The notes under the pieces were generated by a model, which saw only the letters and a list, made by a program, of their open reading frames with translations, searched no databases and was not told the origin of the DNA. 64,000 bases of DNA from Candidatus Woesearchaeota archaeon (GTDB lineage Archaea > Nanobdellota > Nanobdellia > Woesearchaeales > GW2011-AR9). Position numbers and translations under genes: made by a program. The stretch covers positions 1-64,000 of the forward strand of contig JABHQW010000008.1 of NCBI GenBank assembly GCA_018696595.1. The letters run 5' to 3'. Below are positions 7,434 to 27,918 of the stretch, piece after piece. Numbering within the stretch: the stretch's first letter is position 1; each line of letters starts with the position of its first letter.

Positions 7434-9329
7434 TCATTCAAAAAATACTTTCATAACACCTTTAACTTTAGTTACTCTCTTAACTAATTCTTTTAGATGT
7501 TCTAAATCTCGAGGTACAACCAAGAAATTACATTGAGCATGATCTAAATCAATCAGTTTTGCTTTCGCTTCTTTAACTTCAAAACCAGCATTAGCAATTG
7601 TGTGTAACAAATCTGCTAATAACCCACTCCGCTCATGAGCATTAACAAAAAACTTTATTTTTTGTCCAAAAGAATCTTTCCAATTAACTGGCACCCAACG
7701 ATTTTGTTCTTTCAAAGCAAGTCGACAATCATCTTTATGTACTGAAACAATTCTTCTTTTGGTTAGTATCCCCGCGATGTCCTCTCCAGGTAAAGCTTGA
7801 CAACATTTAGCTAAAACACAAGAAGCATTGGGAAACTCTTCAGATTCAGCCAGAAGCCCTTGTTCTTCTCGCATAATCGGTTTAAAAGAACGGAAATGAA
7901 AAGCAGGTAAGTCTTCATAATTCTTTAATGATTTTCTAATTTTTTGTCTGGCCTTGGCAGATTTAACAATCTTAATCCAACTTCTTCTTGGACGTTGATT
8001 TTTGTTAGTAACAACCTCAACCACATCACCATGAGCAACTTCTTTCTTTAAAGAAACAAACTTGCCGTTAATTCTTCCACCAACAGTTTTATTTCCAACT
8101 TCTTCATGAACTAAATAAGCAAAGTCCAAAATAGTTGCACCTATTGGCAATTCTTTTATGTCTCCTTTAGGAGTATAACAATAAATAATATCTCCAAAAA
8201 CATCAACCTTTGCTGCTTCTAAAAATTCTTTGTTACCACCCTCTTTCTGTAAATCCAAAATACCCTTCAACCAAGAGATTTTTTTTTCAAATGATTGTTC
8301 TGAAGACATTCCTTTGTAACGCCAATGGGCAGCTATTCCTTCTTCAGCCACTTCATTCATTTCAGGAGTCCTAATTTGTACTTCGGCGATTCTCCCATTA
8401 GAAAGTTTTAGACCCGTATGAATTGAACGATAAAGGTTTGGTTTAGGGTTCGCAATATAATCTTTTAACCTTCCTTGAAGAGGATCAAATACTTCATGCA
8501 ATAAACCTAATACAGAATAACAATCCTTTTCATCGGGAACAATTATCCTAATGCCAAATAAATCAAATAGTTTGTCCAATCGAACTTTCTTTTTCTTAAT
8601 CTTACGATAAATGCTATAAACATGTTTAGGCCTACCTTTAATCTCAATAACTTTAATCCTTTCACCAATAACTTTCTTAATCACGCGAATTGCTTCGACC
8701 ACATTTTTTTGTCTTTGTTCATTAGACTCTTTTAAGAAATTAGTAATTTCTCTATACTTACGAGGATTAATAATTTTAAATGACAATTCTTCTAACTCCA
8801 CCTTAATTTTCTCCAATCCTAAACGATAAGCCAGAGGGGCATAAATTTCTAAGACTTCATGTGCAATTCTTTCTTGTTCTTCTTTAGGTAACTGACCAAT
8901 TGTCCTGAGATTGTCTAATTTATTTGCTAACTTAATTAAAATTACACGCATATCTGTCAAAGCAGTAATTAAGATTCTTCTTAACACTTCTGCTTCGAGA
9001 TTGTTATTCTTTTGTTTGATCTCCCGGATCTCTTCAACTTCTTTAATTAAAGAAAAAACTTCAGAACCAAATAAATCCTTGATCTTATTTTTAGTGTCCT
9101 CATTTAAATGACCATGCAATAGTCCCGCAAGAACAACTTCTATTGCAGAACTGTTTTCTGCCAAGATATTAGCTACTCGTAAATTATGTTCAAAGAAAGA
9201 ATCACCAGAAATCCTTTTTTTTCCAGTAAGATCAGAACTAATTAATGTTATCGCTTGATTAAACTTTTCAATAGCTTCTTTAGTGTACTGATTATTATCA
9301 CATAAAAATAAAAATTCCTTAACTTTCAT
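7434..9329 (-). CDS. relA: Long RelA/SpoT homologue: degenerate HD, (p)ppGpp synthetase, TGS, ZFD/CC and ACT domains
   Basis: GRPKHVYSIYRK, DLFGIRII, KDYIANPKPNLYRSIHT, EVQIRT, GIAAHWRYK, YTPKGD...DFAYLVH (TGS), AKCC..PGEDI, ERSGLLADL (ACT). Confidence 0.92.
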   Translation of the reverse strand: MKVKEFLFLCDNNQYTKEAIEKFNQAITLISSDLTGKKRISGDSFFEHNLRVANILAENSSAIEVVLAGLLHGHLNEDTKNKIKDLFGSEVFSLIKEVEEIREIKQKNNNLEAEVLRRILITALTDMRVILIKLANKLDNLRTIGQLPKEEQERIAHEVLEIYAPLAYRLGLEKIKVELEELSFKIINPRKYREITNFLKESNEQRQKNVVEAIRVIKKVIGERIKVIEIKGRPKHVYSIYRKIKKKKVRLDKLFDLFGIRIIVPDEKDCYSVLGLLHEVFDPLQGRLKDYIANPKPNLYRSIHTGLKLSNGRIAEVQIRTPEMNEVAEEGIAAHWRYKGMSSEQSFEKKISWLKGILDLQKEGGNKEFLEAAKVDVFGDIIYCYTPKGDIKELPIGATILDFAYLVHEEVGNKTVGGRINGKFVSLKKEVAHGDVVEVVTNKNQRPRRSWIKIVKSAKARQKIRKSLKNYEDLPAFHFRSFKPIMREEQGLLAESEEFPNASCVLAKCCQALPGEDIAGILTKRRIVSVHKDDCRLALKEQNRWVPVNWKDSFGQKIKFFVNAHERSGLLADLLHTIANAGFEVKEAKAKLIDLDHAQCNFLVVPRDLEHLKELVKRVTKVKGVMKVFFE

Positions 9330-10643: not shown

Positions 10644-13253
10644 TTATTTTCCGGAAAGTGAAAAGTGCATAAAATCTTTTTGGTTTCCAGACCACTCCCC
10701 ACCCCATTTCCAACCAAGATTAACTAAATTTTGATATGCCGGTGAACTTTTAGTAATTGTTCCGGGAAATGATTGATCTCTTAATTTATTCTTACTTCCG
10801 CCATGGCTTAATGAACATTTACTTGAATCCCAAACATTACAATTATCATACAACCCATTATACTCTCGATTAATATCTACTGCCAAACCATAAGGATGTT
10901 GTCCAAACTTTGTTTTAGAACTATAAGTTCTTCCTTCTCTGAAACCCACAACATCAAAAATATTAAAACCAGAATTACAAATATTTTGAATAGCATTTTT
11001 TATTTGTGCTTCATATTTCCAACAGATTTTAAATGAAAGACTTTGCCCATTACAATTAACATTAATTTCTTTTTGATCTTCCCTACAAAGGGTACAACCA
11101 GAACCACTAGGATCAAATACTTCTCCACCGATTTCGGAGTACTTTTTCTGTTTAAGTCCATTATCTTCATAACTACAAGTTTGTGGAGTAACACGATTAG
11201 AATTTAGAGTATTACCAAAATTAGTATTAACACCAGAACTACTTCCAGCAGTTGGATCACAAAATTGTCCTTGTAATTGTTGAATCAAGTTTGTTGGATT
11301 CTGAATATCTTGGTGTTTTTTTGTTAAAGAATCAACTTTACAGTCAGTTGAATAACCATTATTAGGTTCCCACTTAATGTTTTCATCTTTCATGCCAGAA
11401 TACACTTCTAAATGTAACATGGCATCTTTACCATTCGTCCCACAATAACTAGCGACACCGATCTTTTGACCTGGAACAATTGAATCTCCTGGATTAACAG
11501 CAACTTTATCATTATCTATCTCGCCATAATTAATTGTTCTTTTCAATTGAGGATTGTAAACATAAACTGCGGACACTTTTTTATTAATTCCTTGTGCACC
11601 CCAACCATCCTTACATTCGTAAAAATTTTTGACAGCAACAACGGTTCCAGCTTCCAAAGCAACAACAATTCCAGGGGGTTTATTGTAAATATCTATGCCA
11701 ACATGACACCTAGTATTATCATCACGAGGATTACCCCAATTACTACTAATTTTAGTAAAACTATCACTTGTTAAAGGAAAACATTGTCCGGGAGAAGATA
11801 AGGCTAAAATCCCCCCTGGATTACTAAGACTATGAGGAGTACCATAAGAGGGAGAAGACCCCGCAGAACCTTGTTGAATAGTATAATAAACTTTCTTAAT
11901 ATCTTGCCAACTCCAAGCGTTTGTTAAAGTTTTATCCCAAACTTTTCCAACACCTTCACTAGCAACAAAATTACTAACCTTCAACCAAGCTTCATCAATC
12001 TCTTCCTGTCTTTTAGGAAGACCTTTAGGAACTTCCTTATTTTGTCCGCCAGGGGCTTGTTTTTGATATGAAGTAGGGCTGTTTGCAATTGTACCTGAAG
12101 GAGTTTGAACATTTGTCTGCCCGAGAGTAATTGCACCATAAGCAGATGACCCAGAATAAGTCCAAGCCATAGACATTTTTCCAATATTTTTATGACCAAT
12201 ATCTAAAGGGACATAATTAACATTAGGGTGCCCAGGAACTTTAAGTACTTGACCCGTAACTGCTCCAGGAGTTGAAGATTTTTCTTTATCTTTCGTATTC
12301 CATTTAACATTCTCAGTATACCAACTAGCTACCTGAGCATCATATTGGGCACCTAATTGTTTTACAGTAAGAATTGCAAATTGTGTTGGCCGATGAGCAC
12401 CCCTTCTACTTGGATCTTGCACTAACATGTACATCTCGGCATTTGAATTGTATTGTAAATAATGTTCATAAACAAGCAAGGCAGACGGTTGTTCTTCAAA
12501 TGGACTACTAGAACTAAAACCCCACCCATAATCAGAATCTGAGAAAACTATTTTATTCACACCAATAGATTTCAACGCATTATTACTTTTACTTGGACGA
12601 GTAGCACCATGTCTTAATGCTGCACCACCAGCACTATGTCCAACCATAGAAACATAACCAACATCAACCCCTGGATTAAAATTTTGTTTCAAAATATTTA
12701 TTGCATCTTGGTGTAATTGAATCAAATTAGAATCGCCATCCTTCCAAATATCATTTTGATTACTTCTTTTAGCAGTTCCTGCAGACCAGGGCATTTCCGG
12801 AAAAACAATAACGAAGTTTCTTCCTGAACCAGACAATATTTTAGCTTGAGGTGCTACTCTTAAATTCATGTCATTATAACTATCACCATTCCCGTGATAA
12901 GAGAAACCCGTTAAACCATGAAAAAAGTACATCACCTCGATTTTTTTACTGAAGTCAGTAGAACAAGGAACAAAAATAATTGTTTCCCTACCTGTGTCTA
13001 CACGATCATCATTATCATTAGGTCCATTAGATTGTAATTTCCCAATCCAACTTTTTCCCCCCAGGGTTTGTCCACTAATAGCAGCCTTCCAACCATTAAC
13101 AATTTCTTGTCGAGGATTATTCGATTCAATAACTTCATGATTTGTATTTGTACAAGTTGTCGCTCCGAAAGGAACACTTGCAGCTAAAGAGAATGAAGAA
13201 AAGAGAACTAATAGGAAAAATGACAATAAAATAATTATTTTTATTTTCTTCAT
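10644..13253 (-). CDS. Secreted multidomain protein: alpha/beta-hydrolase, shared linker, M23 peptidase, M15 peptidase
   Basis: Signal peptide; FFHG...GHSAGG elbow; HVGID (M23 HxxxD) and MLHLE; C-terminal QHPYGLAVDIN and DFMHFS (M15 Zn motifs). Confidence 0.8.
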   Translation of the reverse strand: MKKIKIIILLSFFLLVLFSSFSLAASVPFGATTCTNTNHEVIESNNPRQEIVNGWKAAISGQTLGGKSWIGKLQSNGPNDNDDRVDTGRETIIFVPCSTDFSKKIEVMYFFHGLTGFSYHGNGDSYNDMNLRVAPQAKILSGSGRNFVIVFPEMPWSAGTAKRSNQNDIWKDGDSNLIQLHQDAINILKQNFNPGVDVGYVSMVGHSAGGAALRHGATRPSKSNNALKSIGVNKIVFSDSDYGWGFSSSSPFEEQPSALLVYEHYLQYNSNAEMYMLVQDPSRRGAHRPTQFAILTVKQLGAQYDAQVASWYTENVKWNTKDKEKSSTPGAVTGQVLKVPGHPNVNYVPLDIGHKNIGKMSMAWTYSGSSAYGAITLGQTNVQTPSGTIANSPTSYQKQAPGGQNKEVPKGLPKRQEEIDEAWLKVSNFVASEGVGKVWDKTLTNAWSWQDIKKVYYTIQQGSAGSSPSYGTPHSLSNPGGILALSSPGQCFPLTSDSFTKISSNWGNPRDDNTRCHVGIDIYNKPPGIVVALEAGTVVAVKNFYECKDGWGAQGINKKVSAVYVYNPQLKRTINYGEIDNDKVAVNPGDSIVPGQKIGVASYCGTNGKDAMLHLEVYSGMKDENIKWEPNNGYSTDCKVDSLTKKHQDIQNPTNLIQQLQGQFCDPTAGSSSGVNTNFGNTLNSNRVTPQTCSYEDNGLKQKKYSEIGGEVFDPSGSGCTLCREDQKEINVNCNGQSLSFKICWKYEAQIKNAIQNICNSGFNIFDVVGFREGRTYSSKTKFGQHPYGLAVDINREYNGLYDNCNVWDSSKCSLSHGGSKNKLRDQSFPGTITKSSPAYQNLVNLGWKWGGEWSGNQKDFMHFSLSGK
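11815..12035. repeat. 221-bp direct repeat copy 1 (shared internal linker of two secreted enzymes)
   Basis: Aligns without gaps to 15802-16022. The 68-bp stretch 11953-12020 is identical to 15940-16007. Confidence 0.95.
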
Positions 13254-13284
13254 TTCTTTCCCAAATTAAATTATTTTCTAAATA

Positions 13285-14109
13285 TTATCTTTCTTTATAA
13301 TAAATAAAGTAAATTGCTAAAATCACAACTAACATTATCGCTAAAACAATAGCAAGATAAATTTGCCAAGCAGTTTTGGTTTGCTTTGTTTCTTGTATTT
13401 CTGATGATTGATATGTCCCCACAAAAAGTGTTTCTTCTGGGACATCTTGTCCATCAAAAGGATCAGTACCAACTTGCTTTTCATATGTGTCACTGTATTG
13501 GTCATGATCAGTATCTGCCCAACCAGGCAGGATATCTTCATTTAGACTGTTTGAATTGCCTCTCAACTCTGCTAAGTTACGGTAACCATCACTATCTAAA
13601 TCTATCCACCACGGCGTGGATTTAGGATTTTCTTTGTCTGTGTTAGAATTATGTTCTTCATAATTATAAAACCCATCTTCATCGGAATCTACACAATCAA
13701 TATCATAATCACCCAAATAATCAAAACATTCTTCTTCATACAATATCACACAAATATTGTCGTTTTGCACACACCAGTTTTCCTCATCTATTTCCCCATA
13801 ATATTCAATAGTATTAGGATTTTCAGTTGGGTCTTCTGGGTCAGTACCAATTACCAGCTCTTCTTCGTTACCAAACCAATCACCATCAGTGTCCCATTGT
13901 GATAAAAAAATATTACAGGCATCTAAATTATTAGCGAGAAGATAGTTTTCAAATCCTGTATCTAGTTCTTGCAATTCGTAACATAGTGCCAAAGTAAGTG
14001 TATCTTCACTAATTTCTGACCCAGATAGTGCCGTTACTAAATAAATCGAACAAAATAAAAATACAAGTACAATAATAGTTTGTTTTGTTTTCTTTTGTTT
14101 TGTTTTCAT
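13285..14109 (-). CDS. Membrane-anchored acidic protein with DxDxDG calcium-binding (thrombospondin type 3-like) repeats
   Basis: N-terminal signal; DTDGDW, DSDEDG, DLDSDG, DTDHDQ repeats each followed by E..GTDP-like segments; C-terminal TM helix. Confidence 0.7.
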   Translation of the reverse strand: MKTKQKKTKQTIIVLVFLFCSIYLVTALSGSEISEDTLTLALCYELQELDTGFENYLLANNLDACNIFLSQWDTDGDWFGNEEELVIGTDPEDPTENPNTIEYYGEIDEENWCVQNDNICVILYEEECFDYLGDYDIDCVDSDEDGFYNYEEHNSNTDKENPKSTPWWIDLDSDGYRNLAELRGNSNSLNEDILPGWADTDHDQYSDTYEKQVGTDPFDGQDVPEETLFVGTYQSSEIQETKQTKTAWQIYLAIVLAIMLVVILAIYFIYYKER

Positions 14110-14121
14110 TTGTTTTGTTTT
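14077..14121 (-). repeat. 3 x 15-bp tandem repeat (AAAACAAAACAAA-NN) spanning the start codon of 13285-14109
   Basis: Units AAAACAAAACAAATG, AAAACAAAACAAAAG, AAAACAAAACAAACT. Confidence 0.8.
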
Positions 14122-14153
14122 GATTAATTAGTGAATTAACTCCTAATTATTGG

Positions 14154-17100
14154 TTAAATATTAAATTGATCCAAAGTATTTCCATTTTCATCCTTAGCCA
14201 CACAATGTAAATTCGCATCGCAACGATAATACCCTCTTGTTTGTAAACAAAATACAGACCCTTGAGTAGGTAAACAGGATCTTGGATTTAGCATCGCACC
14301 AACTTCTAAATGTGTTACCCCCCCTCTAATTACTCTAGCTAATCCATGAGTGTGTCCAGCAAAAGCTAATACTTTATTCCCTTTATTTTTATGTTCCACT
14401 AATAATTCATGCCACTTTCTTGCGCAACCATTACTATGACTCCCAGTAATCTGTGGATAAGCAGGTTTATGATATCCCAACATAATATCTTTGTTAGGGT
14501 TCGCATTCAACTGTTGTTTTAAAAATTGAGTTTCGAAATTACAATTGCCCTCATTATTTAGAATGATTGCTATTAAATTAGAAGTTATAGGCACCACATG
14601 ATGACCACCATTAGACATTTGATTACGGATGTAAGGAAATTCATCACCTAAATTATCGGCAATTGCTTGGTGGCCTTTTCCTTTATAAGTACTCTTGCTT
14701 TCGTGATTCCCCACAATGGCATAAAGAGTCCCTTGCTTAATTAAATCACGTTCATAATTTAAAAACTTTTTCCAATGGTCTTTTCTACCACCATCATCAA
14801 CAAAATCTCCAACATGAAACAATGAAGGGTTGGCACATTCTTTCTTTATACTTTCAAGTGCTATTTTTTGTTTAAGCGTAGGGTTACGAGTATCACCATA
14901 TAATATCAAACAATTTGGATCTTTTACTTGTCCCTGGCCCACGTAAGTTGTTTGAGAAGGTGCTGTTGAACCAGAATTTTTAGCACTTGGACCAGTTGAA
15001 TAACCACTTTGAGATGCTTCCTTACATTTTGAAAAATAAACATAACGTTCTGGTCTATCACCTCCCACATATCTTTTAAAAACTTCTTTAATTTGTTCAG
15101 GAGTCTGTGCATTTTTAGCACCTTTTTTAATCAATTCATCAACCATAGCAACAATATTCTTATGAGGGTCAAAAAGATCACAAAGAGTATAAGTTATTCC
15201 CCCTTGCTCAATCGTAGTGGCCCCAAAATTAGAAGTTAATTGACCCAAACCAATCCCATATCGATAATTAGGATCAAATTTATTCCCATTATTATCACAA
15301 AAATGGGCTTTTGCTAAATTTGGATTGCTGGTAGGCACATTCAATGAATAAGTAGAAGTATCAAAAATTCCTTTAATACAAGGATCTTGTATTGCCTGAA
15401 TACATTGTGCTCTTAATTGTTGTCGTTCACTACTTGATAAACTCCTTCGATTCTCAACCAAATTAACACAACTAGAATGCTTATTTGCTTCAGCATTACA
15501 ATCATTCATCAATTTGCTAGTGCTTGCTTCTGAAAATGGACCATACTGATTTTGACATGCAGGAGATTTATCTAAAAGTAATCTTCTTCTTGCTGAAACA
15601 GTACATCTACCAACATTAGCATCATTACCTACTCTCCACCATTGACCACTAGATTCTTGTTTCACTGTTACCAAACCAAAACAAGGATCAATCCCTTTCT
15701 GTTTAGACACTTCTACAACCTCAGGCAAATAAGTAGTATCTTTATATCCACTAAGACCAGCAAAACTGCCAGATCCTGTTGAGGATAAAGGAAGTGGCCC
15801 GCCAGGATTACTTAAGCTAAATGGAGTCCCATAAGAGGGAGCAGAACCGATAGGAATTTGTTGAATGGTGTAATAAACTTTCTTAATGTCTTGCCAACTC
15901 CAAATGTTAGTCAAAGTTTTATCCCACACTTGATTAACCCCTTCACTAGCAACAAAATTACTAACCTTCAACCAAGCTTCATCAATCTCTTCCTGTCTTT
16001 TAGGAAGTCCCTTAGGAACCTCTTGAGTGGTAAATTGTTGTTGCTGTTGTTGAGAGTAAGGTTGTGCAAATTGCTGATTATTACTAGCCAACTTAGAACC
16101 AGGAGTTATTCCTTGTTGATTATTTGTCTGCTGTTTGATACAACTTGCAATCATCCCATTATGATCATTCTCTGTTACTTGTCCTTCTATCGGAGCAACT
16201 AATTCGACACTAAAAGGATTAAAATTTGCAACACTCTCTTTAGGAGCAAAATAATAATAAGCGTCAGTATTGTAAGCATAACGTAAACAATAAGCAACTG
16301 CCTTAACATGACGATGATCAGAAACAACTAACACTTTTTCTCCTGGTTGAATATAACCTTTTGAGTTTTGTAAGTTAGCAGCAGTGTCTCCAGACTTAGT
16401 TTCTTTAATGACGGCAATCTTAGAATGTATATTTTGGTCAAGTGTTAACAAATACGTTTCCATTTCTGTAGCTTCATTACAACCACCACTACAAGTCTGA
16501 CAGGTTGCATCTTTATCTGTTTCAACACAACCACCAGTTAAAATTAATTTTTTAAAATTATTTCCTACACTAATCAAATCATAACCTGCTCTTACTCGAT
16601 TTTCCATCTCTGAACGCAGATGTCTTCCAAGAATCATCATCGTATCAAACTCTTGCAAATTTGCCGAATTGGTTAAATAAGTACTTGTAGCTTGTTCTGT
16701 TGTTATTTGTCCCCCAAACACTTCGCTAAAAACTTTATTTGACATTGCTTGATATCCAGCAGTATTTGGATGAACATTGCCACAAGAAGAAGCATAATTT
16801 GAATTCATACAAGGTTCTTGACTAACAAGAAGTTGATAAAAATCTACCACACCACCAATATTCCCAATTTCTTTTTGTGTTCTTATCCAGACATTAATTT
16901 CTTTAACTACATTATTCTTTTCTACACTATTTTGTTTGTTATATGGGGGAATTGTTCCAGCTATGACCTTAATATTGTTATTTCTTGCTAAAAAATAGAT
17001 CTGTTCTAAATTTGCAATCACATCAGGGGCAGACTTGCCCCCACTAATATCATTAGTCCCACCAAGAACAATTAAATGAGTATATCCTTTATTAAGAATC

Positions 17101-17348
17101 TCTGATTTAAGTTTAGTTAACATCCAGGGAGTCCATTTCCCACTAACAGCATAATTAATGGGTTGATTTCCACAAGATTGAATAAATTGAGGACCCCAAC
17201 CAACAGTAATAGAATCACCTAATAAAGCAATTTTATTACTATTACAAGAATCAGCTAAGACAGAGAAAGATAACCAAGAAATAAATAAAAAAATAACAAC
17301 TAACAAAAACAATAATTTACCTTTCCCTCTTTTTCTGTCCCCAAACAT
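14154..17348 (-). CDS. Secreted multidomain protein: SGNH hydrolase, DUF218-like, shared linker, SLT/lysozyme-like, metallophosphoesterase
   Basis: GDSI/GTND/HPN (SGNH); GG...EA.EM..YL...ETKSGDTAAN...VSDHRH (DUF218-like); QESSG...GLGQL...LFDPHKNI (SLT-like); GDT/GDFVD/GNHE/GHTH (calcineurin-like). Confidence 0.8.
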   Translation of the reverse strand: MFGDRKRGKGKLLFLLVVIFLFISWLSFSVLADSCNSNKIALLGDSITVGWGPQFIQSCGNQPINYAVSGKWTPWMLTKLKSEILNKGYTHLIVLGGTNDISGGKSAPDVIANLEQIYFLARNNNIKVIAGTIPPYNKQNSVEKNNVVKEINVWIRTQKEIGNIGGVVDFYQLLVSQEPCMNSNYASSCGNVHPNTAGYQAMSNKVFSEVFGGQITTEQATSTYLTNSANLQEFDTMMILGRHLRSEMENRVRAGYDLISVGNNFKKLILTGGCVETDKDATCQTCSGGCNEATEMETYLLTLDQNIHSKIAVIKETKSGDTAANLQNSKGYIQPGEKVLVVSDHRHVKAVAYCLRYAYNTDAYYYFAPKESVANFNPFSVELVAPIEGQVTENDHNGMIASCIKQQTNNQQGITPGSKLASNNQQFAQPYSQQQQQQFTTQEVPKGLPKRQEEIDEAWLKVSNFVASEGVNQVWDKTLTNIWSWQDIKKVYYTIQQIPIGSAPSYGTPFSLSNPGGPLPLSSTGSGSFAGLSGYKDTTYLPEVVEVSKQKGIDPCFGLVTVKQESSGQWWRVGNDANVGRCTVSARRRLLLDKSPACQNQYGPFSEASTSKLMNDCNAEANKHSSCVNLVENRRSLSSSERQQLRAQCIQAIQDPCIKGIFDTSTYSLNVPTSNPNLAKAHFCDNNGNKFDPNYRYGIGLGQLTSNFGATTIEQGGITYTLCDLFDPHKNIVAMVDELIKKGAKNAQTPEQIKEVFKRYVGGDRPERYVYFSKCKEASQSGYSTGPSAKNSGSTAPSQTTYVGQGQVKDPNCLILYGDTRNPTLKQKIALESIKKECANPSLFHVGDFVDDGGRKDHWKKFLNYERDLIKQGTLYAIVGNHESKSTYKGKGHQAIADNLGDEFPYIRNQMSNGGHHVVPITSNLIAIILNNEGNCNFETQFLKQQLNANPNKDIMLGYHKPAYPQITGSHSNGCARKWHELLVEHKNKGNKVLAFAGHTHGLARVIRGGVTHLEVGAMLNPRSCLPTQGSVFCLQTRGYYRCDANLHCVAKDENGNTLDQFNI
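15802..16022. repeat. 221-bp direct repeat copy 2
   Basis: Encodes EVPKGLPKRQEEIDEAWLKVSNFVASEG...SLSNPGG, as in copy 1. Confidence 0.95.
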
Positions 17349-17369: not shown

Positions 17370-17978
17370 TTAACCAATTAATTCTTCATAATCTTCTTCG
17401 TAGTACTCTTCACTAAAATCTTCAACATAAACCACCTGGAATTTTTTAACCAAAGTAGTTTTCTTTGTCAACAATGGATTCTCAATAAATAATTCCATGG
17501 TGTATTCTCCTTCTGGCAATCCTTGATTAACAATAAAAAAGTCTTTGAATGTAACATCTTCAGTTTCCTTATTACTTGTCAGATCAAAATTAAAATTGTT
17601 ACTTTCATCAACCTCCAATAACAGTTCTCCGGTCGGACCTTTAATTCGATAGTTCTCCACTAACATAATATCCCCATTATAAGTGCTACTTTCAACAGTA
17701 AAAATAAAATGAATCTCCGAACCAAGATCAAAAGTTTCAATTTCATTCATACAATTATAATCAAAATCAATGAAATCACAAAACTTAAAATCCTTGATTG
17801 TCAAATATCCTTCCCTGGTAACAGGGATAAAATTAGCATTTAAAACTGAAACTTGTTCATTTTCTGCTTCAACTGTAATAGTTCCAGTTTGGACCAACAA
17901 TAAAATAATTGCACTCGTAATAACTACCACAATTAGCATTACTAAAATTTCAGTCATTACTTTTCCTTGTTTATTCAT
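17370..17978 (-). CDS. Pilin-like protein (probable class III signal peptide) with acidic beta-sandwich domain
   Basis: MNKQG-KVMTEILVMLIVVVITSAII N-terminus. Confidence 0.55.
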   Translation of the reverse strand: MNKQGKVMTEILVMLIVVVITSAIILLLVQTGTITVEAENEQVSVLNANFIPVTREGYLTIKDFKFCDFIDFDYNCMNEIETFDLGSEIHFIFTVESSTYNGDIMLVENYRIKGPTGELLLEVDESNNFNFDLTSNKETEDVTFKDFFIVNQGLPEGEYTMELFIENPLLTKKTTLVKKFQVVYVEDFSEEYYEEDYEELIG

Positions 17979-17986
17979 CTTTTATT

Positions 17987-20900
17987 TTATTCTGGGAGAC
18001 AACAATACATTATGGCACTACTACCGCACCCGTGTTCAAGACCTAAACTATCTGCCCACGCTTGTGTTGAATACATTCCCCTACTCCAACATTGTGGTGT
18101 AGTTGGCGGACTTCCAGGAAGGTTACTTGAAGATAATAATGCACCTCCAGTTGGAGTCCTACAAACATAAGTGTTCCAATTATTTGGTTGCCAACCAGCA
18201 GGATAATTTGTTGCGATTTGGAAATTTGCATCTTTATGACCACAAGTTCCTGTTACTGGAGAAGTTGTATCTAAAGAAGCACCATCAGTAACACCTGCAC
18301 CAGTAATATCAATATTACATTGTGCTTTATCTTTAATAATTGTTAAATATTTTCTAATCTTCTCATAATCTGGTTTCTCATTACCAAGTGTTCCAGTCAC
18401 ACCCTCTGGATAAGGTTGTCCAATGTTCCCAAACCCATAATCTCTTTCAAAGAATGTTTTTAACATACTACAAACTTTAAATTTAGAATCCTGATTTTGA
18501 ACCCAGTTTTCTCCTCCCAATAAAATATGACAAGCAGCAGAATAATACACAGCAATAGCATCTTCAACATCATTATTCTTCCGATCTAATATTTTTCCAG
18601 ACCGTGCTAAAACTTCTGCACAATTACCTACCATATAATCCTGATGTAATTGGCTAGCTTGCTGAGCAACTAAAGGTTGTAGTGTTAAAGTAATTGATTC
18701 AGTATGTTCCGACCTTCCAAACGTAGGGGCTTTGACCCCAATATTTGCATTGAAACAACCATTTTGTCCGTCTGGCATTAATAACTTAGCAGTTACTGAA
18801 ATTGAGCTTTGTCCTAATGAAGAAATTGACGAACCACCAGCAGAATAAACGCAAGATGTTTTGCCATTACCTACTGTTGGAGCACCAACAAGATTAGTAT
18901 ACTTCAAACCACCAAAATTAAATATTGTTGCTTTGATTTCTTGTGGAGTCAATAAGTCTTTGCCATCTTTTCTTAATACAGATTCTAATCCTTGTGGGAA
19001 TTCAGTATAACCGGCTGGACCTTCAACAGTTACTCCTGAAGGAAATTTAACACGATATTGGTTTCCAACTTTCTCAAAAATAAACGGATAATCTTTTGAT
19101 TGCACGGAAGCTCCAGAAGAACCATAAGCAAAAGGTTGACTACAACCTGGAGCACTACTTGATGTATCTAAAGTTAATTTCCCACTACCACCAGAAAACA
19201 TCCCTTCGTTAACTGTACCTAAACCTTGAATTTCAATTGCAAAAGGCCCAGGTAAACCCTTTGGAAGAGGATCAGCAGGAGGGAATTGAGATGAATAACT
19301 ATTTAGAGGATCAGACTGTTGATACAATCCAGAGACAGAAGTTCTTAAACAATAATCTCCACCATCAGTCATCATGTGTACTTTAACTCTTATTGGGTCT
19401 CCTTTTGAGAATACACCTGGAGTTTTACAACCAATCCAAGATTGTGTTCTTTGATCATAACAACTCATGTAAGGGTCTTCTAAATAAACCCCTGCCCCAG
19501 AACCAAACATTTTCTGAACCTCTGGGCAGAAGTATCTTCCCGTAGCAGGTTGTACTTGACAAATAAATTCTGCAGGTGCAGAAGTATCAATGATAGGATA
19601 ATAAAATACGCCATCGCGATAACCTTCATCAAAACATTTTTCCGATTCTTCATAAGCATCTAAGTTTAATTTTACAACAACATGATCATATCGATAACTG
19701 GAATCAACTTTTTGTGGTGCGGGTATTTCTAAATCAACAAATGAACCAGATTTAAGATCTCTAATTCTACCATGTTCAACATTATAAGTTTTTTCAGACT
19801 CTAAGTTACTAGACTCTTCTGTGATGTGTAAACAATCACAACCTTGCCCTTCACAGCTTACTCCGGGACGATCTAAATCTTCTTGCCCAACACATTTCAA
19901 GGAAACATCAACACTTTTAATCTTACATCCCGGAAGCACCATCGCGCCTAAGTTATAATTGTAAACTGCCGAACCTTTCTGGGGATTAAAAGTAGCTAAC
20001 TCTCTTTCAGCTGGGAAAACCATAACAGTAGTTTTTCCTGAAACAGCGTATGCAGAATCCAAAATGAAGTCTGTTCCCATCGGCCAATCATAACCAAATG
20101 CAGCCATACAAATTGATTGAGTAAATCCTTTAGAACCAGCAGCAAAATATTGGTTAAGTTGAGCATTACCATAATCACTTTTAATATCATCAATTGAAGA
20201 TTGCATTGCTTCTCCGATTGATTCAATTCCTGCTTTAAAACCAAAACCTAAGCTATCCAATAAACCGCCACTTTCTCCTTTGGCTTGATCACCAGCAGTA
20301 TTAGCGCTACAATCATTATAAAAATAAGCAATAATCTTGTAAACTAATCCACAGACGTGTTGTGAAAAAATAGTTTTACAAACTCCCGCATCTGTCAAAC
20401 CAGAAATCTTAGCTTCTTCGATACAATTTCTAAATCCTTCTAAGATGCTCTTCAATGTAATTAACTGGGCTCTAACTCTAGACAAACAAATTGTTTGGTA
20501 AGCTCCTAAAAATTGAGTGTGAGGATTAACTTCATGAACTTCTTTATTCTCTCCCTTCAAATAATCTAATAAATAATCTGCTCCAAAAGCTGAAGAAGTG
20601 TCTCTTACAGAATAATATCTCCATTCAGGATAGTAAGTCCCCCCATTACCAGAACTTTCTCTAAACAATGTTCCTTGCCTATAACTCCATCGTTCAGATT
20701 CCTCACCAACTTCTTTAGCCGCAACTCTGACACCACTATAACCTTTAGTGTTATTAATATCTTCAGCCACGCAAACACATTGTAATAATCCAGTGTAACC
20801 TGTGTCTGGTTTCTTAGCTACTAATGTGCTTGTTGAAGCTGTTTGTGTTACAACCCCTTCAACAATGCAAATATTATTTTTACCACAAAAAGAATTATTT

Positions 20901-23900
20901 CCAAGTTCTGTTTTACAAATTGCATCACTTTGACACTGAACTGTTGAGGCAGAAGCTTGTCCTGTTTGTTCCAAATCAACAAAACAATCCGAAGTATAAC
21001 CCGCAGGGTATCTTGGGCCTTTCAATAATCTGCCATTAGTGTCGTCTGCTGTTTCAGCTATTGGTTCACCTAAATTTGTTGAATCTTTAGAGTTTCCAGA
21101 CTGATCTGTAAGTTCGCCCTGCTCATTTTCTCTAATTATAATTGTCTGTTCATCAGAGTCGGCAGCAGGTTCAGGGATTTCCACTCCACCCTCTAAAACA
21201 ATATTCTTCCCAGAAAACTTTTCTGCATAACAGCCATGTTGTACGGCCCCTTTCTCTTGTTCATTAGCAATATTCTTCACACTTTTAGTAACATCATATT
21301 CATAACCCGGTTTCCTTAAACTTTGACAAACATATTCACAACTTCTATCTTGACCAACAATAAAGTTATTTGCTTTTGGAGGTTTGTAAGCAATTAATTT
21401 CTGAGGAACATCTTGAGCAATCGCACTTAAACCACCAGTATTTAATTTTCTTCCAAAGTCATAAATTAAACTTAACTCTCTAGTTTCTCCACCTCGTACC
21501 ACCGACTTTGAAGCCCCACCAGTATCTATATATAAACGATCATTGTAACGGTAACAAGTACTTCCTCCTTTACTGATAAACTCTGCAGTTCTTTGGTTAG
21601 GCATAGAAGAAACATGATTTTTTTCAATGATTTCATTACAATTCTCAATTTCTTGTAGTGGAACCCCTGAAGCAGAAACTGAACATTGACTTTGTTTAAG
21701 AACAACAGTATCAACTTCTGCTTTATCTTTTGATGCAGTCCAACCCGCAGGAACTGCTCGACAATAAACCCGATCACAAGTCCATTTGTATAATTGATCA
21801 AGAGCAGCCTCAGCTTTCCACATTCCTGCCGTGCTTGGACAAACATCATCTAAAGAATATCCTTCAGCATTCCAATCTTGTTTTACATTCCCGTCAGTGT
21901 ATCCAATAGAATCATAATCACCTGGATTAGTTCCTGGTTGATTGAATAAACCACTAACTTCACTCCAATGATCTACTGTTTTCTTCAATAATAAGTTACT
22001 TTGATCCTTGGGGCATTTTTTCCCTTCAGCATCAGCACCAACTGCACTTGAAACTTTAGAAGAATAAGATTCATATTTAGCAGTAAATATTCTTAACCAT
22101 CTTACAACCATCCTTCCAAGGAATGAACCAATACAAGCATAACCAGCCACAAGAACTGCATCTTCAATGTAAGGCAGGATATTATCTATTAAATTAATAG
22201 TTTCATCAACAACAGTTAATCCTTCATCAGCTAACCAATCTGGGATCATGTCTGCACTATCAATAGGAATATCAACAAAATAACTTAAATCATAACAAGA
22301 CGTTTGAGTTTTTACCGGCCCAAGATTCCCATTACCATCCCTCTCTTGATAACTAACTCTAATCTTCATCGGAAAAACTATTTGTCTTTTCTTGAAATCA
22401 TTCCAGAAATCGCCATCCTTATCACTTAACTTTTCTGCACTATGTAAATTATAAGTTAAGTACCAAGCAGTTTTATCATTGTTAGAAATCTTTCTAGGAT
22501 GTGGGGGCATAACATTACATCCCAACTTAGTACTTTCGTCTTCCATCATTCCTGATGTACACGCCCGATCAAAACTAACACTATTGACTTTAAATGCTTC
22601 ACCCTCTGGAAGAATCTGCCCAGAGTTCTGATCTTTCTTAGCCTGTCCAGAACCCCGATAACTCAAATTAAATACCGCGGTTGCTTCTTCCCTACCATCA
22701 TCCAATAACCCAGGATCTAAACGTAATGGTCTTTGAAATTCAGGAACTGAACGAATATCAAAATCCCAATCAGAGGAATAACAGGTGTTAACAGTAACAG
22801 TAGTTTGAGCAAAAGCAGTTTTTCCACTTTTATCTTCTGCAACTAAAAAAACATGATATGTCCATTGCTGTTGATCAACAACAGTAGAAGTTGGAAAGAT
22901 AGAATAATCTAACAAATTTTGAGGAACTTCTTTTGGGGCCAAATTTTCCAGACTTACTGGTTCGCTTTCAAAATCAACATCTTTAAATTTAAAAGTCCCA
23001 TTTTGGTCGGCAGTAACCTTTGCCCAAGCACGATCAAACTTAGGACTATAATCATAACCAATTGGCCGATAAACAAACAAGTAAATATCCGCCCCAGCTT
23101 CAGTCTCACCATCAATTGATGATTCTGCTCGGCCCTGATAATATTCCTGCCCTTTTGAAATGTCAAATTTAAGAGTTGGTGCTTTTGTATCTGCACCGAT
23201 AACTATTTCTTTAATCGTTTCCCAACCAGCCACATCTTTGGCAACAATCTTAATAATATTTTCACCTTCTTCTAAAGAGAGAGATTCTTTAATTTCAACT
23301 CCAGTCCCATCTGCTTCAGATTCATTATTGACAAAAACTTCATAATCAGATTCTTCAGAAATTGTTGCCACTAAATCAAAACTCCCTTGGTCAACTATTT
23401 CAGGAATATCAGCAACAGTTATTTGGGGCTTACTCCCATCTGCAAACACAGTTCCAGAGAATTGAGCAGAATTACCAGCAGCATCAATTACTTCTATTCC
23501 TATTTGATTATCCTTATCCTTGCCAACAATAACATTATTAAACACGAACTTACCATCCAAATTTTCTGGCTTGTCTTCCTCTTCTTTATCTTCTTGATTT
23601 TTATCCCATAAAGCTTTTCCATACGGCGCTTCTAAATAACTAAAACTAATTGCACTTCCAACTAAAGCTTTTTCCTGATCATAAATTTCATCAACAAAAT
23701 CTTTTTTGTTATTAAAACCTAATGCTGAAAAATCTAATCCCTTTTCATAAATAACGTAAGGAACATTTTCTCCATCTTCTTTTCGATTATAGCAACCATT
23801 AAGTCCTTCATACTTGTTCTCAGAAGCACAACTAGAATCAACAGTTGTAAAATAACCACCAGCAGGATCAACTGCTTTCCAAGCACCATCAATATAAACA

Positions 23901-24910
23901 TCCGCAAAAACATGACCTAAGAAAGGACTATCAACTTTTTCACCAGCATTAACTTTCTCTAAGAAATCCTGTTGGATCGTTTCAACATAAATTGCAGGAA
24001 TTCCTTTAGCTCTTGCTAAAGTTATAAACACTAATGCAAAATCAGTACAACCACTAAACTCTCCTTTTTCAATAATTTCTTCAGCAGTAAGACTTCCTTT
24101 AGCTAAAGAGTCAATATCTTTGTGTTCTAAATTGTCTTGGATCCAAGAAATAATATTCTCCGCAATCTCTTTATCAGAATCTCCAGTAATTAAATCGGCC
24201 ATTTTCTGGATTGCAGGAGTGACTTCTGTTTGTTCACCTGTTTGTAAATATTTAGTTGCTAAAGCAGGAAGTTCTTCTTCAGGAGTTTCACTTTCAATCA
24301 TTTCACTTTCATTTACTGGACCCTCAATTTCCTCTTCAACATCTTCAACAACAGTTTCTTTATTATCATCAAAAGCATCTTCAATAACTAAGTTTTCTTC
24401 AAACTCAGATTTAGCAACAGTACTACCAGCAAAAGCGTCGTTAACATAAAGCTTAACATTCATTCCTGGTTCGGTCCAACCAACAAGGTCAAATTTCCCG
24501 CCTGGAATCATTTTCGGAAGATTAACATAAACTTCGGGAGCAGTAGTGTCTGGAACTAATGTTCTGAATGAGTATAAGTTTCCAGAATTGTCATCAACAG
24601 TTCCAGAACTTTCAACATTGTAAAAATATTCCTGATCTTCATTAAGATTCTCTAACGACATCTCGTGCTCAGTTAATTCCTTAGCATCGCCTATCTTTTG
24701 CAAACTTTCTTTATTATCTCCGTAACTTACAAAACTACTTCCAGCTTCATCAGTATCCCATTTAATTACAGCACCATTCTCTGTAATATCTTCTGCACTA
24801 ATACCCGAAATTTCTAACGCGTTAACTAAAGGCAAATTAACAAATAGAGCAATAACTATCAAAACCAATAACTTCCTGTTCAGTATTCTTGTAAATTTTT
24901 CTCTCATCAT
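17987..24910 (-). CDS. Giant (2307 aa) secreted surface protein: FN3/Ig-like repeats, transglutaminase-like domain, Cys-rich regions
   Basis: Signal peptide; FN3-like (WDTDE...H...L.NL....YFY.V); GCTDF...GHVFADVY...D triad; D..GN Ig-like strands; C-terminal C...CC motif. Confidence 0.75.
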   Translation of the reverse strand: MMREKFTRILNRKLLVLIVIALFVNLPLVNALEISGISAEDITENGAVIKWDTDEAGSSFVSYGDNKESLQKIGDAKELTEHEMSLENLNEDQEYFYNVESSGTVDDNSGNLYSFRTLVPDTTAPEVYVNLPKMIPGGKFDLVGWTEPGMNVKLYVNDAFAGSTVAKSEFEENLVIEDAFDDNKETVVEDVEEEIEGPVNESEMIESETPEEELPALATKYLQTGEQTEVTPAIQKMADLITGDSDKEIAENIISWIQDNLEHKDIDSLAKGSLTAEEIIEKGEFSGCTDFALVFITLARAKGIPAIYVETIQQDFLEKVNAGEKVDSPFLGHVFADVYIDGAWKAVDPAGGYFTTVDSSCASENKYEGLNGCYNRKEDGENVPYVIYEKGLDFSALGFNNKKDFVDEIYDQEKALVGSAISFSYLEAPYGKALWDKNQEDKEEEDKPENLDGKFVFNNVIVGKDKDNQIGIEVIDAAGNSAQFSGTVFADGSKPQITVADIPEIVDQGSFDLVATISEESDYEVFVNNESEADGTGVEIKESLSLEEGENIIKIVAKDVAGWETIKEIVIGADTKAPTLKFDISKGQEYYQGRAESSIDGETEAGADIYLFVYRPIGYDYSPKFDRAWAKVTADQNGTFKFKDVDFESEPVSLENLAPKEVPQNLLDYSIFPTSTVVDQQQWTYHVFLVAEDKSGKTAFAQTTVTVNTCYSSDWDFDIRSVPEFQRPLRLDPGLLDDGREEATAVFNLSYRGSGQAKKDQNSGQILPEGEAFKVNSVSFDRACTSGMMEDESTKLGCNVMPPHPRKISNNDKTAWYLTYNLHSAEKLSDKDGDFWNDFKKRQIVFPMKIRVSYQERDGNGNLGPVKTQTSCYDLSYFVDIPIDSADMIPDWLADEGLTVVDETINLIDNILPYIEDAVLVAGYACIGSFLGRMVVRWLRIFTAKYESYSSKVSSAVGADAEGKKCPKDQSNLLLKKTVDHWSEVSGLFNQPGTNPGDYDSIGYTDGNVKQDWNAEGYSLDDVCPSTAGMWKAEAALDQLYKWTCDRVYCRAVPAGWTASKDKAEVDTVVLKQSQCSVSASGVPLQEIENCNEIIEKNHVSSMPNQRTAEFISKGGSTCYRYNDRLYIDTGGASKSVVRGGETRELSLIYDFGRKLNTGGLSAIAQDVPQKLIAYKPPKANNFIVGQDRSCEYVCQSLRKPGYEYDVTKSVKNIANEQEKGAVQHGCYAEKFSGKNIVLEGGVEIPEPAADSDEQTIIIRENEQGELTDQSGNSKDSTNLGEPIAETADDTNGRLLKGPRYPAGYTSDCFVDLEQTGQASASTVQCQSDAICKTELGNNSFCGKNNICIVEGVVTQTASTSTLVAKKPDTGYTGLLQCVCVAEDINNTKGYSGVRVAAKEVGEESERWSYRQGTLFRESSGNGGTYYPEWRYYSVRDTSSAFGADYLLDYLKGENKEVHEVNPHTQFLGAYQTICLSRVRAQLITLKSILEGFRNCIEEAKISGLTDAGVCKTIFSQHVCGLVYKIIAYFYNDCSANTAGDQAKGESGGLLDSLGFGFKAGIESIGEAMQSSIDDIKSDYGNAQLNQYFAAGSKGFTQSICMAAFGYDWPMGTDFILDSAYAVSGKTTVMVFPAERELATFNPQKGSAVYNYNLGAMVLPGCKIKSVDVSLKCVGQEDLDRPGVSCEGQGCDCLHITEESSNLESEKTYNVEHGRIRDLKSGSFVDLEIPAPQKVDSSYRYDHVVVKLNLDAYEESEKCFDEGYRDGVFYYPIIDTSAPAEFICQVQPATGRYFCPEVQKMFGSGAGVYLEDPYMSCYDQRTQSWIGCKTPGVFSKGDPIRVKVHMMTDGGDYCLRTSVSGLYQQSDPLNSYSSQFPPADPLPKGLPGPFAIEIQGLGTVNEGMFSGGSGKLTLDTSSSAPGCSQPFAYGSSGASVQSKDYPFIFEKVGNQYRVKFPSGVTVEGPAGYTEFPQGLESVLRKDGKDLLTPQEIKATIFNFGGLKYTNLVGAPTVGNGKTSCVYSAGGSSISSLGQSSISVTAKLLMPDGQNGCFNANIGVKAPTFGRSEHTESITLTLQPLVAQQASQLHQDYMVGNCAEVLARSGKILDRKNNDVEDAIAVYYSAACHILLGGENWVQNQDSKFKVCSMLKTFFERDYGFGNIGQPYPEGVTGTLGNEKPDYEKIRKYLTIIKDKAQCNIDITGAGVTDGASLDTTSPVTGTCGHKDANFQIATNYPAGWQPNNWNTYVCRTPTGGALLSSSNLPGSPPTTPQCWSRGMYSTQAWADSLGLEHGCGSSAIMYCCLPE

Positions 24911-27111: not shown

Positions 27112-27918
27112 TCAACCAATATAACTCATATCCCTATCTTTTGCTTTCGCACCAGCTTGATTGGAACCCATTGCAGACATCCATTCCTTAGTTTTTTTCT
27201 TCAACTCTTTCTCAACTTCAATAATTTCTTTACTCATTTTCTTCAAATCATAACCAAACTTAAATTTCTTCTCAATAACTTTAAGAATTTCTTGTGCACC
27301 TTTAATCCCCAAATACATTGGATGGCCAAAAGTTTCTGCAAGTAAAGCCACCCCCTTGATATTTCTTTTCATTCCCAATCCAAGAAGGACTCCTGAAACT
27401 CCGACGATCGGACCAACAACACCAAAAATATCTTTCTCAACCAACATTCCTTTCTTCACATATTCTTTGAAAAGTTTTTCATCATTTCCAGTACAATAAA
27501 CTTTTGGTTTCTCTGGCAGAGATTGTAACCCGATGCCACCAGTAGTAATCATTTCTGCACATTTGAAATGTTTAACAATTTTAAGAATCTCTTCACAAAA
27601 AGTGTAACAACTTTCTTCATCAATCGGTTGAATATCACCAACTAAAAGAATTAGGTCTCTTTTGTTTTTATTTTTGAATTGTTTGTAATAAATTTCAACT
27701 TTAGGCATTTCTACTAGATTATTTTCCCCGACAAAAACGGAGTGAGGAAATTTATATGAGAAAAATGAATACAATTTCTTCGCTTTAAACTCCTCTACTA
27801 AAAAATCAACAGCAATCTTACCTACATTACCAATTCCAGGTAAACCTTCTACAAATAAAGGATTATTTAGCTTAGGTAACGTTTTTGTTTCTTGTGTAAC
27901 TTGCCAAGTCGAATTCAT
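27112..27918 (-). CDS. PAC2 family proteasome assembly chaperone
   Basis: EGLPGIGNVGK, GDIQP, TGGIG and GPIVGVSGVLLG motifs. Confidence 0.88.
   Translation of the reverse strand: MNSTWQVTQETKTLPKLNNPLFVEGLPGIGNVGKIAVDFLVEEFKAKKLYSFFSYKFPHSVFVGENNLVEMPKVEIYYKQFKNKNKRDLILLVGDIQPIDEESCYTFCEEILKIVKHFKCAEMITTGGIGLQSLPEKPKVYCTGNDEKLFKEYVKKGMLVEKDIFGVVGPIVGVSGVLLGLGMKRNIKGVALLAETFGHPMYLGIKGAQEILKVIEKKFKFGYDLKKMSKEIIEVEKELKKKTKEWMSAMGSNQAGAKAKDRDMSYIG

Follow-up and report, generated by a model that had tools for sequence, protein, structure and literature searches.

Why do two neighbouring archaeal genes, unrelated along nearly all of their length, share one internal segment of closely similar sequence? 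The question is raised by the window analysed here, a stretch of 64,000 nucleotides (nt) from a Candidatus Woesearchaeota archaeon (GenBank assembly GCA_018696595.1, contig JABHQW010000008.1, positions 1 to 64,000), in which the adjacent genes P0001 and P0002, both encoding secreted hydrolases, each carry a copy of the segment. The account that we consider probable is that the segments are two copies of a new, lineage-restricted module, ancestral in both genes and homogenised by gene conversion, with a core under constraint and a role that may be that of an adaptor.

A direct repeat in two otherwise unrelated hydrolase genes

Positions 11815-12035 and 15802-16022 form a gapless direct repeat at an offset of 3987 nt (3 x 1329, in frame), in which 189 of 221 nt are identical (85.5%). 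An exact run of 68 nt lies within it (11953-12020 = 15940-16007). The full extent of the repeat is 249 nt, from 11787-12035 and 15774-16022, at 82.3% identity. Both copies lie in minus-strand coding sequence, and the two proteins share 72 of 83 residues over the repeat (87%; BLASTP, E 7e-41); the same comparison gave no similarity between P0001 and P0002 outside it. The edge toward the protein N-terminus is sharp, with matches falling from 25/30 to 11/30 nt at 12035/12036 and the flanks at chance level. The runner-up direct repeat in the 10-kb region is merely 33 nt long at 76%, so the shared repeat stands far above chance. The 1.19-Mb genome contains these two copies of the module only. The features concerned are as follows.

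Positions 10644-13253, minus strand: P0001, 869 amino acids (aa), secreted; signal peptide, esterase-like alpha/beta-hydrolase (GHSAGG), module, M23-like domain (residues 517-620) and M15_4 domain (781-865).
Positions 14154-17348, minus strand: P0002, 1064 aa, secreted; signal peptide, SGNH (residues 40-205), DUF218 (235-361), module, SLT-like domain (~518-783) and Metallophos (842-1002).
Positions 11787-12035, minus strand: copy A of the unit (P0001 residues 407-489), with the core at 11871-12035 (55 codons) and a disordered Ser/Gly/Pro linker at 11787-11870 (28 codons).
Positions 15774-16022, minus strand: copy B of the unit (P0002 residues 443-525), with the core at 15858-16022 and the linker at 15774-15857.
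Positions 11953-12020, minus strand: exact 68-nt run in copy A, encoding LPKRQEEIDEAWLKVSNFVASEG, the long helix of the module.
Positions 15940-16007, minus strand: exact 68-nt run in copy B, identical to 11953-12020.

An earlier sequence-only reading of this locus had aligned the 221-bp segments without gaps at the same offset, with 68 identical bp, and had placed them in two otherwise unrelated genes; the comparisons above bear it out on each of these points. The motifs AWLKV, VWD and WSWQD that it picked out are present, and the flanking blocks agree with its description of an N-terminal enzyme block and a C-terminal wall-lytic block: SGNH and DUF218 before the module and SLT-like and Metallophos domains after it in P0002, an esterase-like block before and M23-like and M15_4 domains after it in P0001. 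Its term "near-identical" names a real repeat and overstates a nucleotide identity of 82-86%.

The N-termini of the two proteins read as signal-peptide-like. The N-terminal block of P0001 has, besides the GHSAGG motif, a weak match to CE1 feruloyl esterase (E 0.005), and an orthologue of P0001 has a weak Esterase match; the M23-like domain of P0001 scores 22 bits, under the Pfam gathering score. The SLT-like domain of P0002 stays below the Pfam threshold, and residues 528-800 gave no Pfam match. When this domain was aligned with Pfam-recognised SLT domains, its catalytic glutamate (E565, E-S motif) and a tyrosine were invariant. A model of P0002 residues 440-800 matched MltF and a phage endolysin (Z 9.1) and MltC (Z 7.7) in VIA-align, with top rows that were nearly all lysozyme-like; Foldseek on this module-plus-SLT model returned insignificant rows only. 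The block that follows copy B is, on the structural model, a divergent SLT/GH23-like domain of lysozyme fold.

An assembly artefact was considered and ruled out. The P0001 and P0002 proteins occur, exactly or nearly so, on 15-17 contigs from several archives, and Logan contigs from three independent seawater runs (X6, X7 and X8) collapse in both copies at the 68-nt run and break precisely there. The stretch is present in seawater metagenomes of 15 studies. A plus-strand open reading frame of 114 codons (15858-16202) that overlaps copy B was set aside as spurious, since conservation lies in the minus-strand frame. Rfam and tRNA scans of the window gave no matches.

The shared unit includes a predicted mini-domain without known relatives

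AlphaFold modelling from a 21-sequence alignment gave a folded segment at residues 1-55 of the unit (predicted local distance difference test score, pLDDT, 83-90) and disorder at residues 56-83. The predicted fold consists of a long helix (residues 8-21), a beta-hairpin (32-34 and 42-44), a short helix and short edge strands. The identical fold was obtained when the module and the SLT region were modelled jointly (P0002 residues 440-800), with a low-confidence linker in between. As modelled, the shared unit is a ~55-residue alpha/beta mini-domain followed by a 28-residue disordered linker, and is more than a plain linker. The sequence-only reading had named it a linker; a discrete conserved unit it is, with a folded mini-domain ahead of the linker part. 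The core consensus is VPKNLPQRxKEIDExWxKIS..VGG.G...VWD..LG.W.W..F..VY. No internal duplication was found in the module, whose predicted fold amounts to one long helix and a small sheet.

None of the 21 module sequences matched any Pfam family, even at E <= 5, and among the profiles without a match to them are those of the known wall-binding families LysM, SH3b, PG_binding_1-3, Cpl-7, SPOR, CW_binding and ChW. A profile of the module searched against the sequences in the PDB returned as its best row the N-terminal domain of LpoA at E 0.22-0.28, which is not significant. Because the domain is so small, fold searches have little power: VIA-align reached a best Z of 2.8 in a wide search, the ESM Atlas gave template modelling (TM) scores <= 0.40 by shape and no usable match by features, and Foldseek against the PDB returned nothing. 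When 1.84 billion representative proteins were scanned exhaustively with HMMER, the module retrieved just 14 at E <= 1e-3, and no bacterial or phage homologue was among the proteins scanned. A word-based protein search with the 83-aa unit returned solely the two proteins of this genome. On the outcome of these searches the module is an undescribed, lineage-restricted protein domain family, and presumably a non-catalytic one.

The module is the constant element of varied peptidoglycan hydrolases

A search with a profile of the core picked up the module in 61 of the 113 genomes (32 of 58 genera) that belong to the family of this genome; none of 247 genomes sampled from the order's other families gave a match. 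With a broader profile, a diverged copy was found in 6 of 8 seemingly module-less genomes. Most genomes have a single detectable copy. The hosts of the module are always secreted multi-domain peptidoglycan hydrolases, in which ~19 different architectures surround it and it is the sole constant element. In relatives its upstream partners are SGNH, DUF218, polysaccharide deacetylase, esterase and Metallophos domains, and its downstream partners are SLT, M23, M15_4, M74+M14, Amidase_2 and Hydrolase_2. The domain that follows the module cleaves peptidoglycan wherever it is recognisable, and domains that remove decorations (SGNH, deacetylase, esterase, DUF218) appear usually to lie on its N-terminal side. 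The architectures include the following.

SGNH before SLT: SGNH-module-SLT; SGNH-module-SLT-Amidase_2; deacetylase-SGNH-module-SLT; SGNH-DUF218-module-SLT-Metallophos.
Other SLT architectures: deacetylase-module-SLT-Exo_endo_phos; module-SLT-Metallophos.
Architectures that lack SLT: DUF218-module-Amidase_2; module-M74-M14; Metallophos-SGNH-module; SGNH-module-Hydrolase_2; module-M23-esterase; esterase-module-M15_4.

Shuffling was also found at joints away from the module, as an alternation of C-terminal Metallophos and Exo_endo_phos domains and as permuted domain orders. A permuted order is seen in G025 (L018, 7406-9658), with module-M23-esterase against esterase-module-M23 here, and another in G031 (L016, 6966-10106), with Metallophos-SGNH-module.

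The C-terminal end of P0002 varies in its own right. Orthologues swap the C-terminal Metallophos and Exo_endo_phos domains (14154-14900 in the window; P0006 and P0029 contigs; L025 3113-5467; L020 6143-8686), an alternation in which one domain has replaced another at a joint that has nothing to do with the module. In P0024, a strain variant 98% identical to P0002, all 21 aa differences fall within the last 133 residues (932-1064; window 14154-14560), and this Metallophos end of the protein looks recombined, as a mosaic.

The module is ancestral in both genes and was homogenised within genomes

Orthologues of P0001 (P0006 and P0016) have the module in the same position and align with it at 44-45% identity, continuously from the esterase through the module. 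Orthologues of P0002 (P0014, P0030, P0031 and an open reading frame of 1073 aa in L015) likewise have it in the same position, and the alignment is continuous across SGNH-DUF218 and the module. Because the orthologues align straight through it, both gene lineages had the module before the genera split. A two-gene arrangement with the module in each gene is found in L025, L035 and L036. The P0006 contig has the two-gene arrangement too, with the module confirmed for P0006 only.

Orthologous modules are 0.4-0.7 identical between genera. Core identity within a genome is 0.94 here, 0.85 in L025, 0.76 in G031 and ~0.77 in G336, the last counted from alignments. Within-genome module pairs were sisters on a maximum-likelihood tree, with support of 93/85, 94/63 and 99/96. 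Grouping the modules by host-gene orthology was rejected in the approximately unbiased (AU) test (p 3e-4 and 2e-61). In the clade of L025, L035 and L036, two variants of a loop, G[FI]PVRGSIL and GNTIR[QN]S.L, are swapped between the SGNH-type and the esterase-type gene when L025 is compared with L036, and the module similarity between the two genes is limited to tracts of 153-178 nt. The closest loop-variant pairs are L036_S with L025_E (0.87) and L036_E with L025_S (0.88). Judged from tree and alignments together, the pattern is one of episodic non-allelic gene conversion that has recurred in at least four lineages, and the copies would be so alike because conversion has acted between two ancestral copies and not because of a recent swap.

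Constraint on the core and the age of the homogenisation

Nonsynonymous (dN) and synonymous (dS) divergence were compared between copies. The pair in this genome gave dN 0.043 and dS 0.45 in the core and dN 0.29 and dS 1.1 in the linker; the L025 pair gave dN 0.12 and dS 1.38 in the core. By these estimates the module core is under purifying selection, with dN/dS ~0.1. The unit minus the 68-nt run has a dS of ~1, by arithmetic from the dN/dS figures. The run itself is non-random by permutation (p 1e-5 for nucleotides, 1.3e-4 for codons and 0.005 within the core) and contains non-preferred codons; the stretch that matches it varies synonymously in L025. No RNA structure was found as its cause (z +0.07, -0.58, +1.33 and +0.89). 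We read the run as the most recent conversion tract, a short one, which would have followed an old full-length homogenisation, with purifying selection acting in between.

Several observations weigh against this account or narrow it. The orthology groups of the AU test had been named after the identity matrix had been seen. The within-genome pairs of G027 and G030 are not alike, and homogenisation is therefore sporadic. A clade of the P0001 module with that of its orthologue P0006 was not rejected (AU p 0.29), so that the date of the last full homogenisation is loosely fixed for this lineage. Synonymous divergence is high outside the 68-nt run (dS ~1 here and ~1.4 in L025), and third-position identity in L025 is 0.63 as against 0.59 expected with randomised codons. 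Because dS is high and the third positions of L025 are near random, much of the present likeness is held by selection on the protein and not by recent conversion.

Alternative explanations of the shared segment

That last point might be carried further, to a history in which both copies fitted one fast-evolving partner or host-specific wall ligand by parallel substitutions, with selection alone at work and no exchange of DNA. Synonymous sites near saturation outside the 68-nt run and in L025, beside amino acids that are 85-94% alike, speak for such a history, as do signatures that are lineage-specific in at least four lineages. It meets its main difficulty in the run, a non-random one that has 0 synonymous changes in 68 nt where an estimate based on the remainder of the unit predicts ~5-7, over a stretch that does vary synonymously in another lineage. 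Moreover, the disordered and weakly constrained linker is shared too (dN 0.29, clearly homologous), whole loop variants have been exchanged between the gene types, and the G027 and G030 pairs are divergent. We regard selection alone as very doubtful. An opposite proposal, that one gene lately received the segment from the other in a single transfer and that the segment is not ancestral in both, would agree with the sharp boundaries and with the lack of any other alignable part between the two proteins. Orthologues of both genes in other genera nevertheless hold the module in the same position, with alignments that run through it, and the arrangement of two genes with two modules recurs in L025, L035 and L036; we attach next to no weight to a recent transfer.

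The sequence-only reading had put forward another role, a recombination hinge, by which the segment persists mainly as a homology patch for the exchange of N- and C-terminal enzyme blocks. The geometry it pointed to holds: the repeats are direct and in frame, and a crossover between them would fuse SGNH-DUF218 to M23-M15 and delete what lies between, namely the SLT-Metallophos part, the gene P0026 and the esterase. The other partners that it expected exist as well, since the module is flanked by many different domains in relatives, which disposes of the objection that it might occur with the same partners only. The constancy of the module among ~19 architectures, the movement of loop variants between the two gene types and the alignment of P0002 with the second G027 gene (DUF218-module-Amidase_2), in which homology stops inside the module, also favour a hinge. 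Yet the module is confidently folded in the prediction and under purifying selection, and its single detectable copy in most genomes leaves it no recombination partner there. Shuffling also takes place far from it, in the alternation of Metallophos with Exo_endo_phos and in the permuted orders of G025 and G031, and none of the relatives examined had the SGNH-DUF218-module-M23-M15 fusion. Logan contigs contained no joint at offset 3987, but they break at the 68-nt repeat, so these contigs cannot properly test recombinant junctions and the absence of recombinants is not established; the joints listed at 12666>16551 and 13247>16413 (shorter side 21 nt) do not have that offset and are too weak to use. 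Taken together, we consider exchange of enzyme blocks improbable as the main role of the segment and retain the reading of an ancestral, constrained module homogenised by conversion.

The module hydrolases follow a pilin-like gene and a giant surface-protein gene

The hydrolase genes belong to a cluster on the minus strand, whose other genes and neighbours are given here.

Positions 13285-14109, minus strand: P0026, 274 aa; carries bacterial TSP3 repeats and is membrane-anchored at its C-terminus; its gene separates the two hydrolase genes.
Positions 17370-17978, minus strand: P0025, 202 aa, pilin-like; N-terminus KQG/KVMTE and then a hydrophobic helix; immediately upstream of the module hydrolase.
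Positions 17987-24910, minus strand: giant surface protein, 2307 aa, with a transglutaminase-like core; upstream of P0025 in every locus examined.
Positions 24907-26919, minus strand: P0027, 670 aa; first gene of the cluster, N-terminus KKGQITIF and then a hydrophobic stretch.
Positions 27112-27918, minus strand: PAC2 (proteasome-assembly-chaperone) family protein, adjoining the cluster.
Positions 7434-9329, minus strand: full-length RelA/SpoT, downstream; its synteny is kept in relatives, and it is unusual for an archaeon.

In every fetched locus the gene order was giant transglutaminase-like gene, ~200-aa pilin-like gene (P0025 family) and then the module hydrolase or hydrolases; in close relatives, genes for enolase and RelA/SpoT come next after the hydrolase genes. 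The P0025-family gene is present once in 102 of the archaeal family's 113 genomes, and it is always flanked by the giant gene and the hydrolase gene. P0025 has Gly at -1 and Glu at +5, a beta-rich body, two invariant cysteines and an acidic tail, and gave no Pfam or NCBIfam match. P0027 gave no Pfam match, and its N-terminus resembles an archaeal class III signal peptide.

P0026 weakly matches the Amuc_1099 family of pilus-like system proteins (34.5 bits, with the cut-off of 50 not reached). G027 and L036 have an orthologue between their corresponding hydrolase genes, and the P0006 contig does not. In run X8, contigs 5-10% divergent from the window span the P0026 gene (window 13400-14350) at a depth of 170-250 versus ~6 elsewhere. 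A similar TSP3-repeat gene is thus carried either by a far more abundant relative or by a shared mobile or variable segment.

Possible functions of the module

What might hold such a module constant within a family of otherwise changing enzymes? We propose that it may be the constant adaptor of a freely shuffled wall-enzyme toolkit. It would dock both enzymes onto a surface structure encoded by the locus, made of the pilin-like P0025 and the giant transglutaminase-like protein, and gene conversion would keep both cargo enzymes fitted to one lineage-specific receptor. Docking onto a pilus or surface scaffold was also an alternative in the sequence-only reading, and it has gained circumstantial support: all 58 module matches on the same contig as a P0025-family gene are on the same strand and 0.1-5.6 kb downstream of that gene (median 0.83 kb). 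Dockerin-like docking to the structure encoded just upstream is the role that we tentatively prefer, by analogy. Two points count against it. P0025, at 38-66% identity within its family, is far better conserved than the module, unlike a co-varying pair; and a module that strictly precedes the lytic domain would suit substrate targeting no less than docking.

A role in targeting the cell wall, like that of the binding domains of phage endolysins, is the next possibility, one we hold with somewhat less conviction; it is opposed by the lack of bacterial homologues of a module whose neighbouring catalytic domains are bacterial-type. A complex prediction for P0025 (residues 34-202) with the module (1-60) gave no answer (score 0.00, without controls) and counts neither way.

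It would be highly interesting if the module did dock enzymes to a surface attack apparatus. In its fullest form, the docking proposal would make the module an archaeal counterpart of the dockerin that loads interchangeable wall-degrading enzymes on a pilin-like fibre or a giant transglutaminase-like scaffold of the same operon; we think this form rather unlikely. If true, it would amount to a surface-bound wall-attack machine by which ultra-small archaea open bacterial hosts or prey.

Comparison with known systems

Dockerins of cellulosomal enzymes bind cohesins on a giant scaffoldin. They form a constant part of ~55-70 residues in many enzymes, their copies are most alike within one organism, and they consist of a duplicated calcium-binding helix pair. 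The module resembles them as a constant part of that size in varied enzymes, encoded beside a giant surface protein, and its copies too resemble each other more within an organism than between organisms. It differs from type I and type II dockerins (PF00404) in the lack of a Pfam match, in its predicted alpha/beta fold and in its internal rather than terminal position. The link to a putative scaffold is here one of genomic adjacency.

Polymorphic toxins, to which the sequence-only reading had likened the two genes, are likewise secreted and modular, and in them too a conserved internal segment adjoins variable enzyme modules. That analogy does not carry over: here the variation extends to either side of the module and not to the C-terminus alone, it concerns wall hydrolases and not toxins with immunity genes, and no immunity-cassette pattern was seen. 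The map of open reading frames contains no orphan cassette array, and the gene between the hydrolases encodes the TSP3-repeat membrane protein.

To our knowledge, DPANN archaea have no peptidoglycan; despite this lack, they encode large secreted murein hydrolases. In the family described here, no part of such hydrolases other than the module is constant and lineage-specific, and the module is tied to a locus with a pilin-like and a giant protein, which makes it an obvious experimental handle. Large extracellular lytic-transglycosylase proteins of Woesearchaeota and Pacearchaeota with SLT/GH23 domains have been proposed to attack bacterial walls (PMC8204110, PMC9723730). They come from the same organisms and are likewise secreted, multi-domain and of bacterial SLT/GH23 type; the passages of those papers that deal with them note SLT only and mention no mini-domain, concerted evolution or fixed gene order.

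The wall-binding domains of endolysins and peptidoglycan hydrolases (Cpl-7, LysM, SH3b, PG_binding_1) offer a further parallel. They too are small, non-catalytic modules with linkers in wall-cleaving proteins that have several catalytic domains, as in the lambdaSa2 lysin, which combines two catalytic domains with a Cpl-7 binding domain (PMC5075790), and around them too domains have been shuffled extensively and the sequence is lineage-specific. No sequence or fold likeness to them was found for the module, which has no bacterial or phage homologues and occurs in one archaeal family only. One survey of peptidoglycan hydrolases in archaea admitted only proteins with a known binding domain (PMC12352652) and would for that reason miss the module proteins; surveys that define these enzymes by known binding domains will miss this family.

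For the evolution of the two copies the closest precedent is archaeal as well: the operon paralogues mtrA-1 and mtrA-2 of methanogens undergo domain-limited gene conversion (PMC4632066). In both cases one shared domain of neighbouring genes has been homogenised repeatedly while the rest differs, and copies cluster within lineages. The present case is set apart by a very short tract (150-250 nt), by hosts that are otherwise unrelated multi-domain hydrolases and by sporadic homogenisation. On the reading preferred here, the locus shows in small and clean form how gene conversion can be limited to one domain of neighbouring genes that are otherwise unrelated, and how this recurs in several archaeal lineages.

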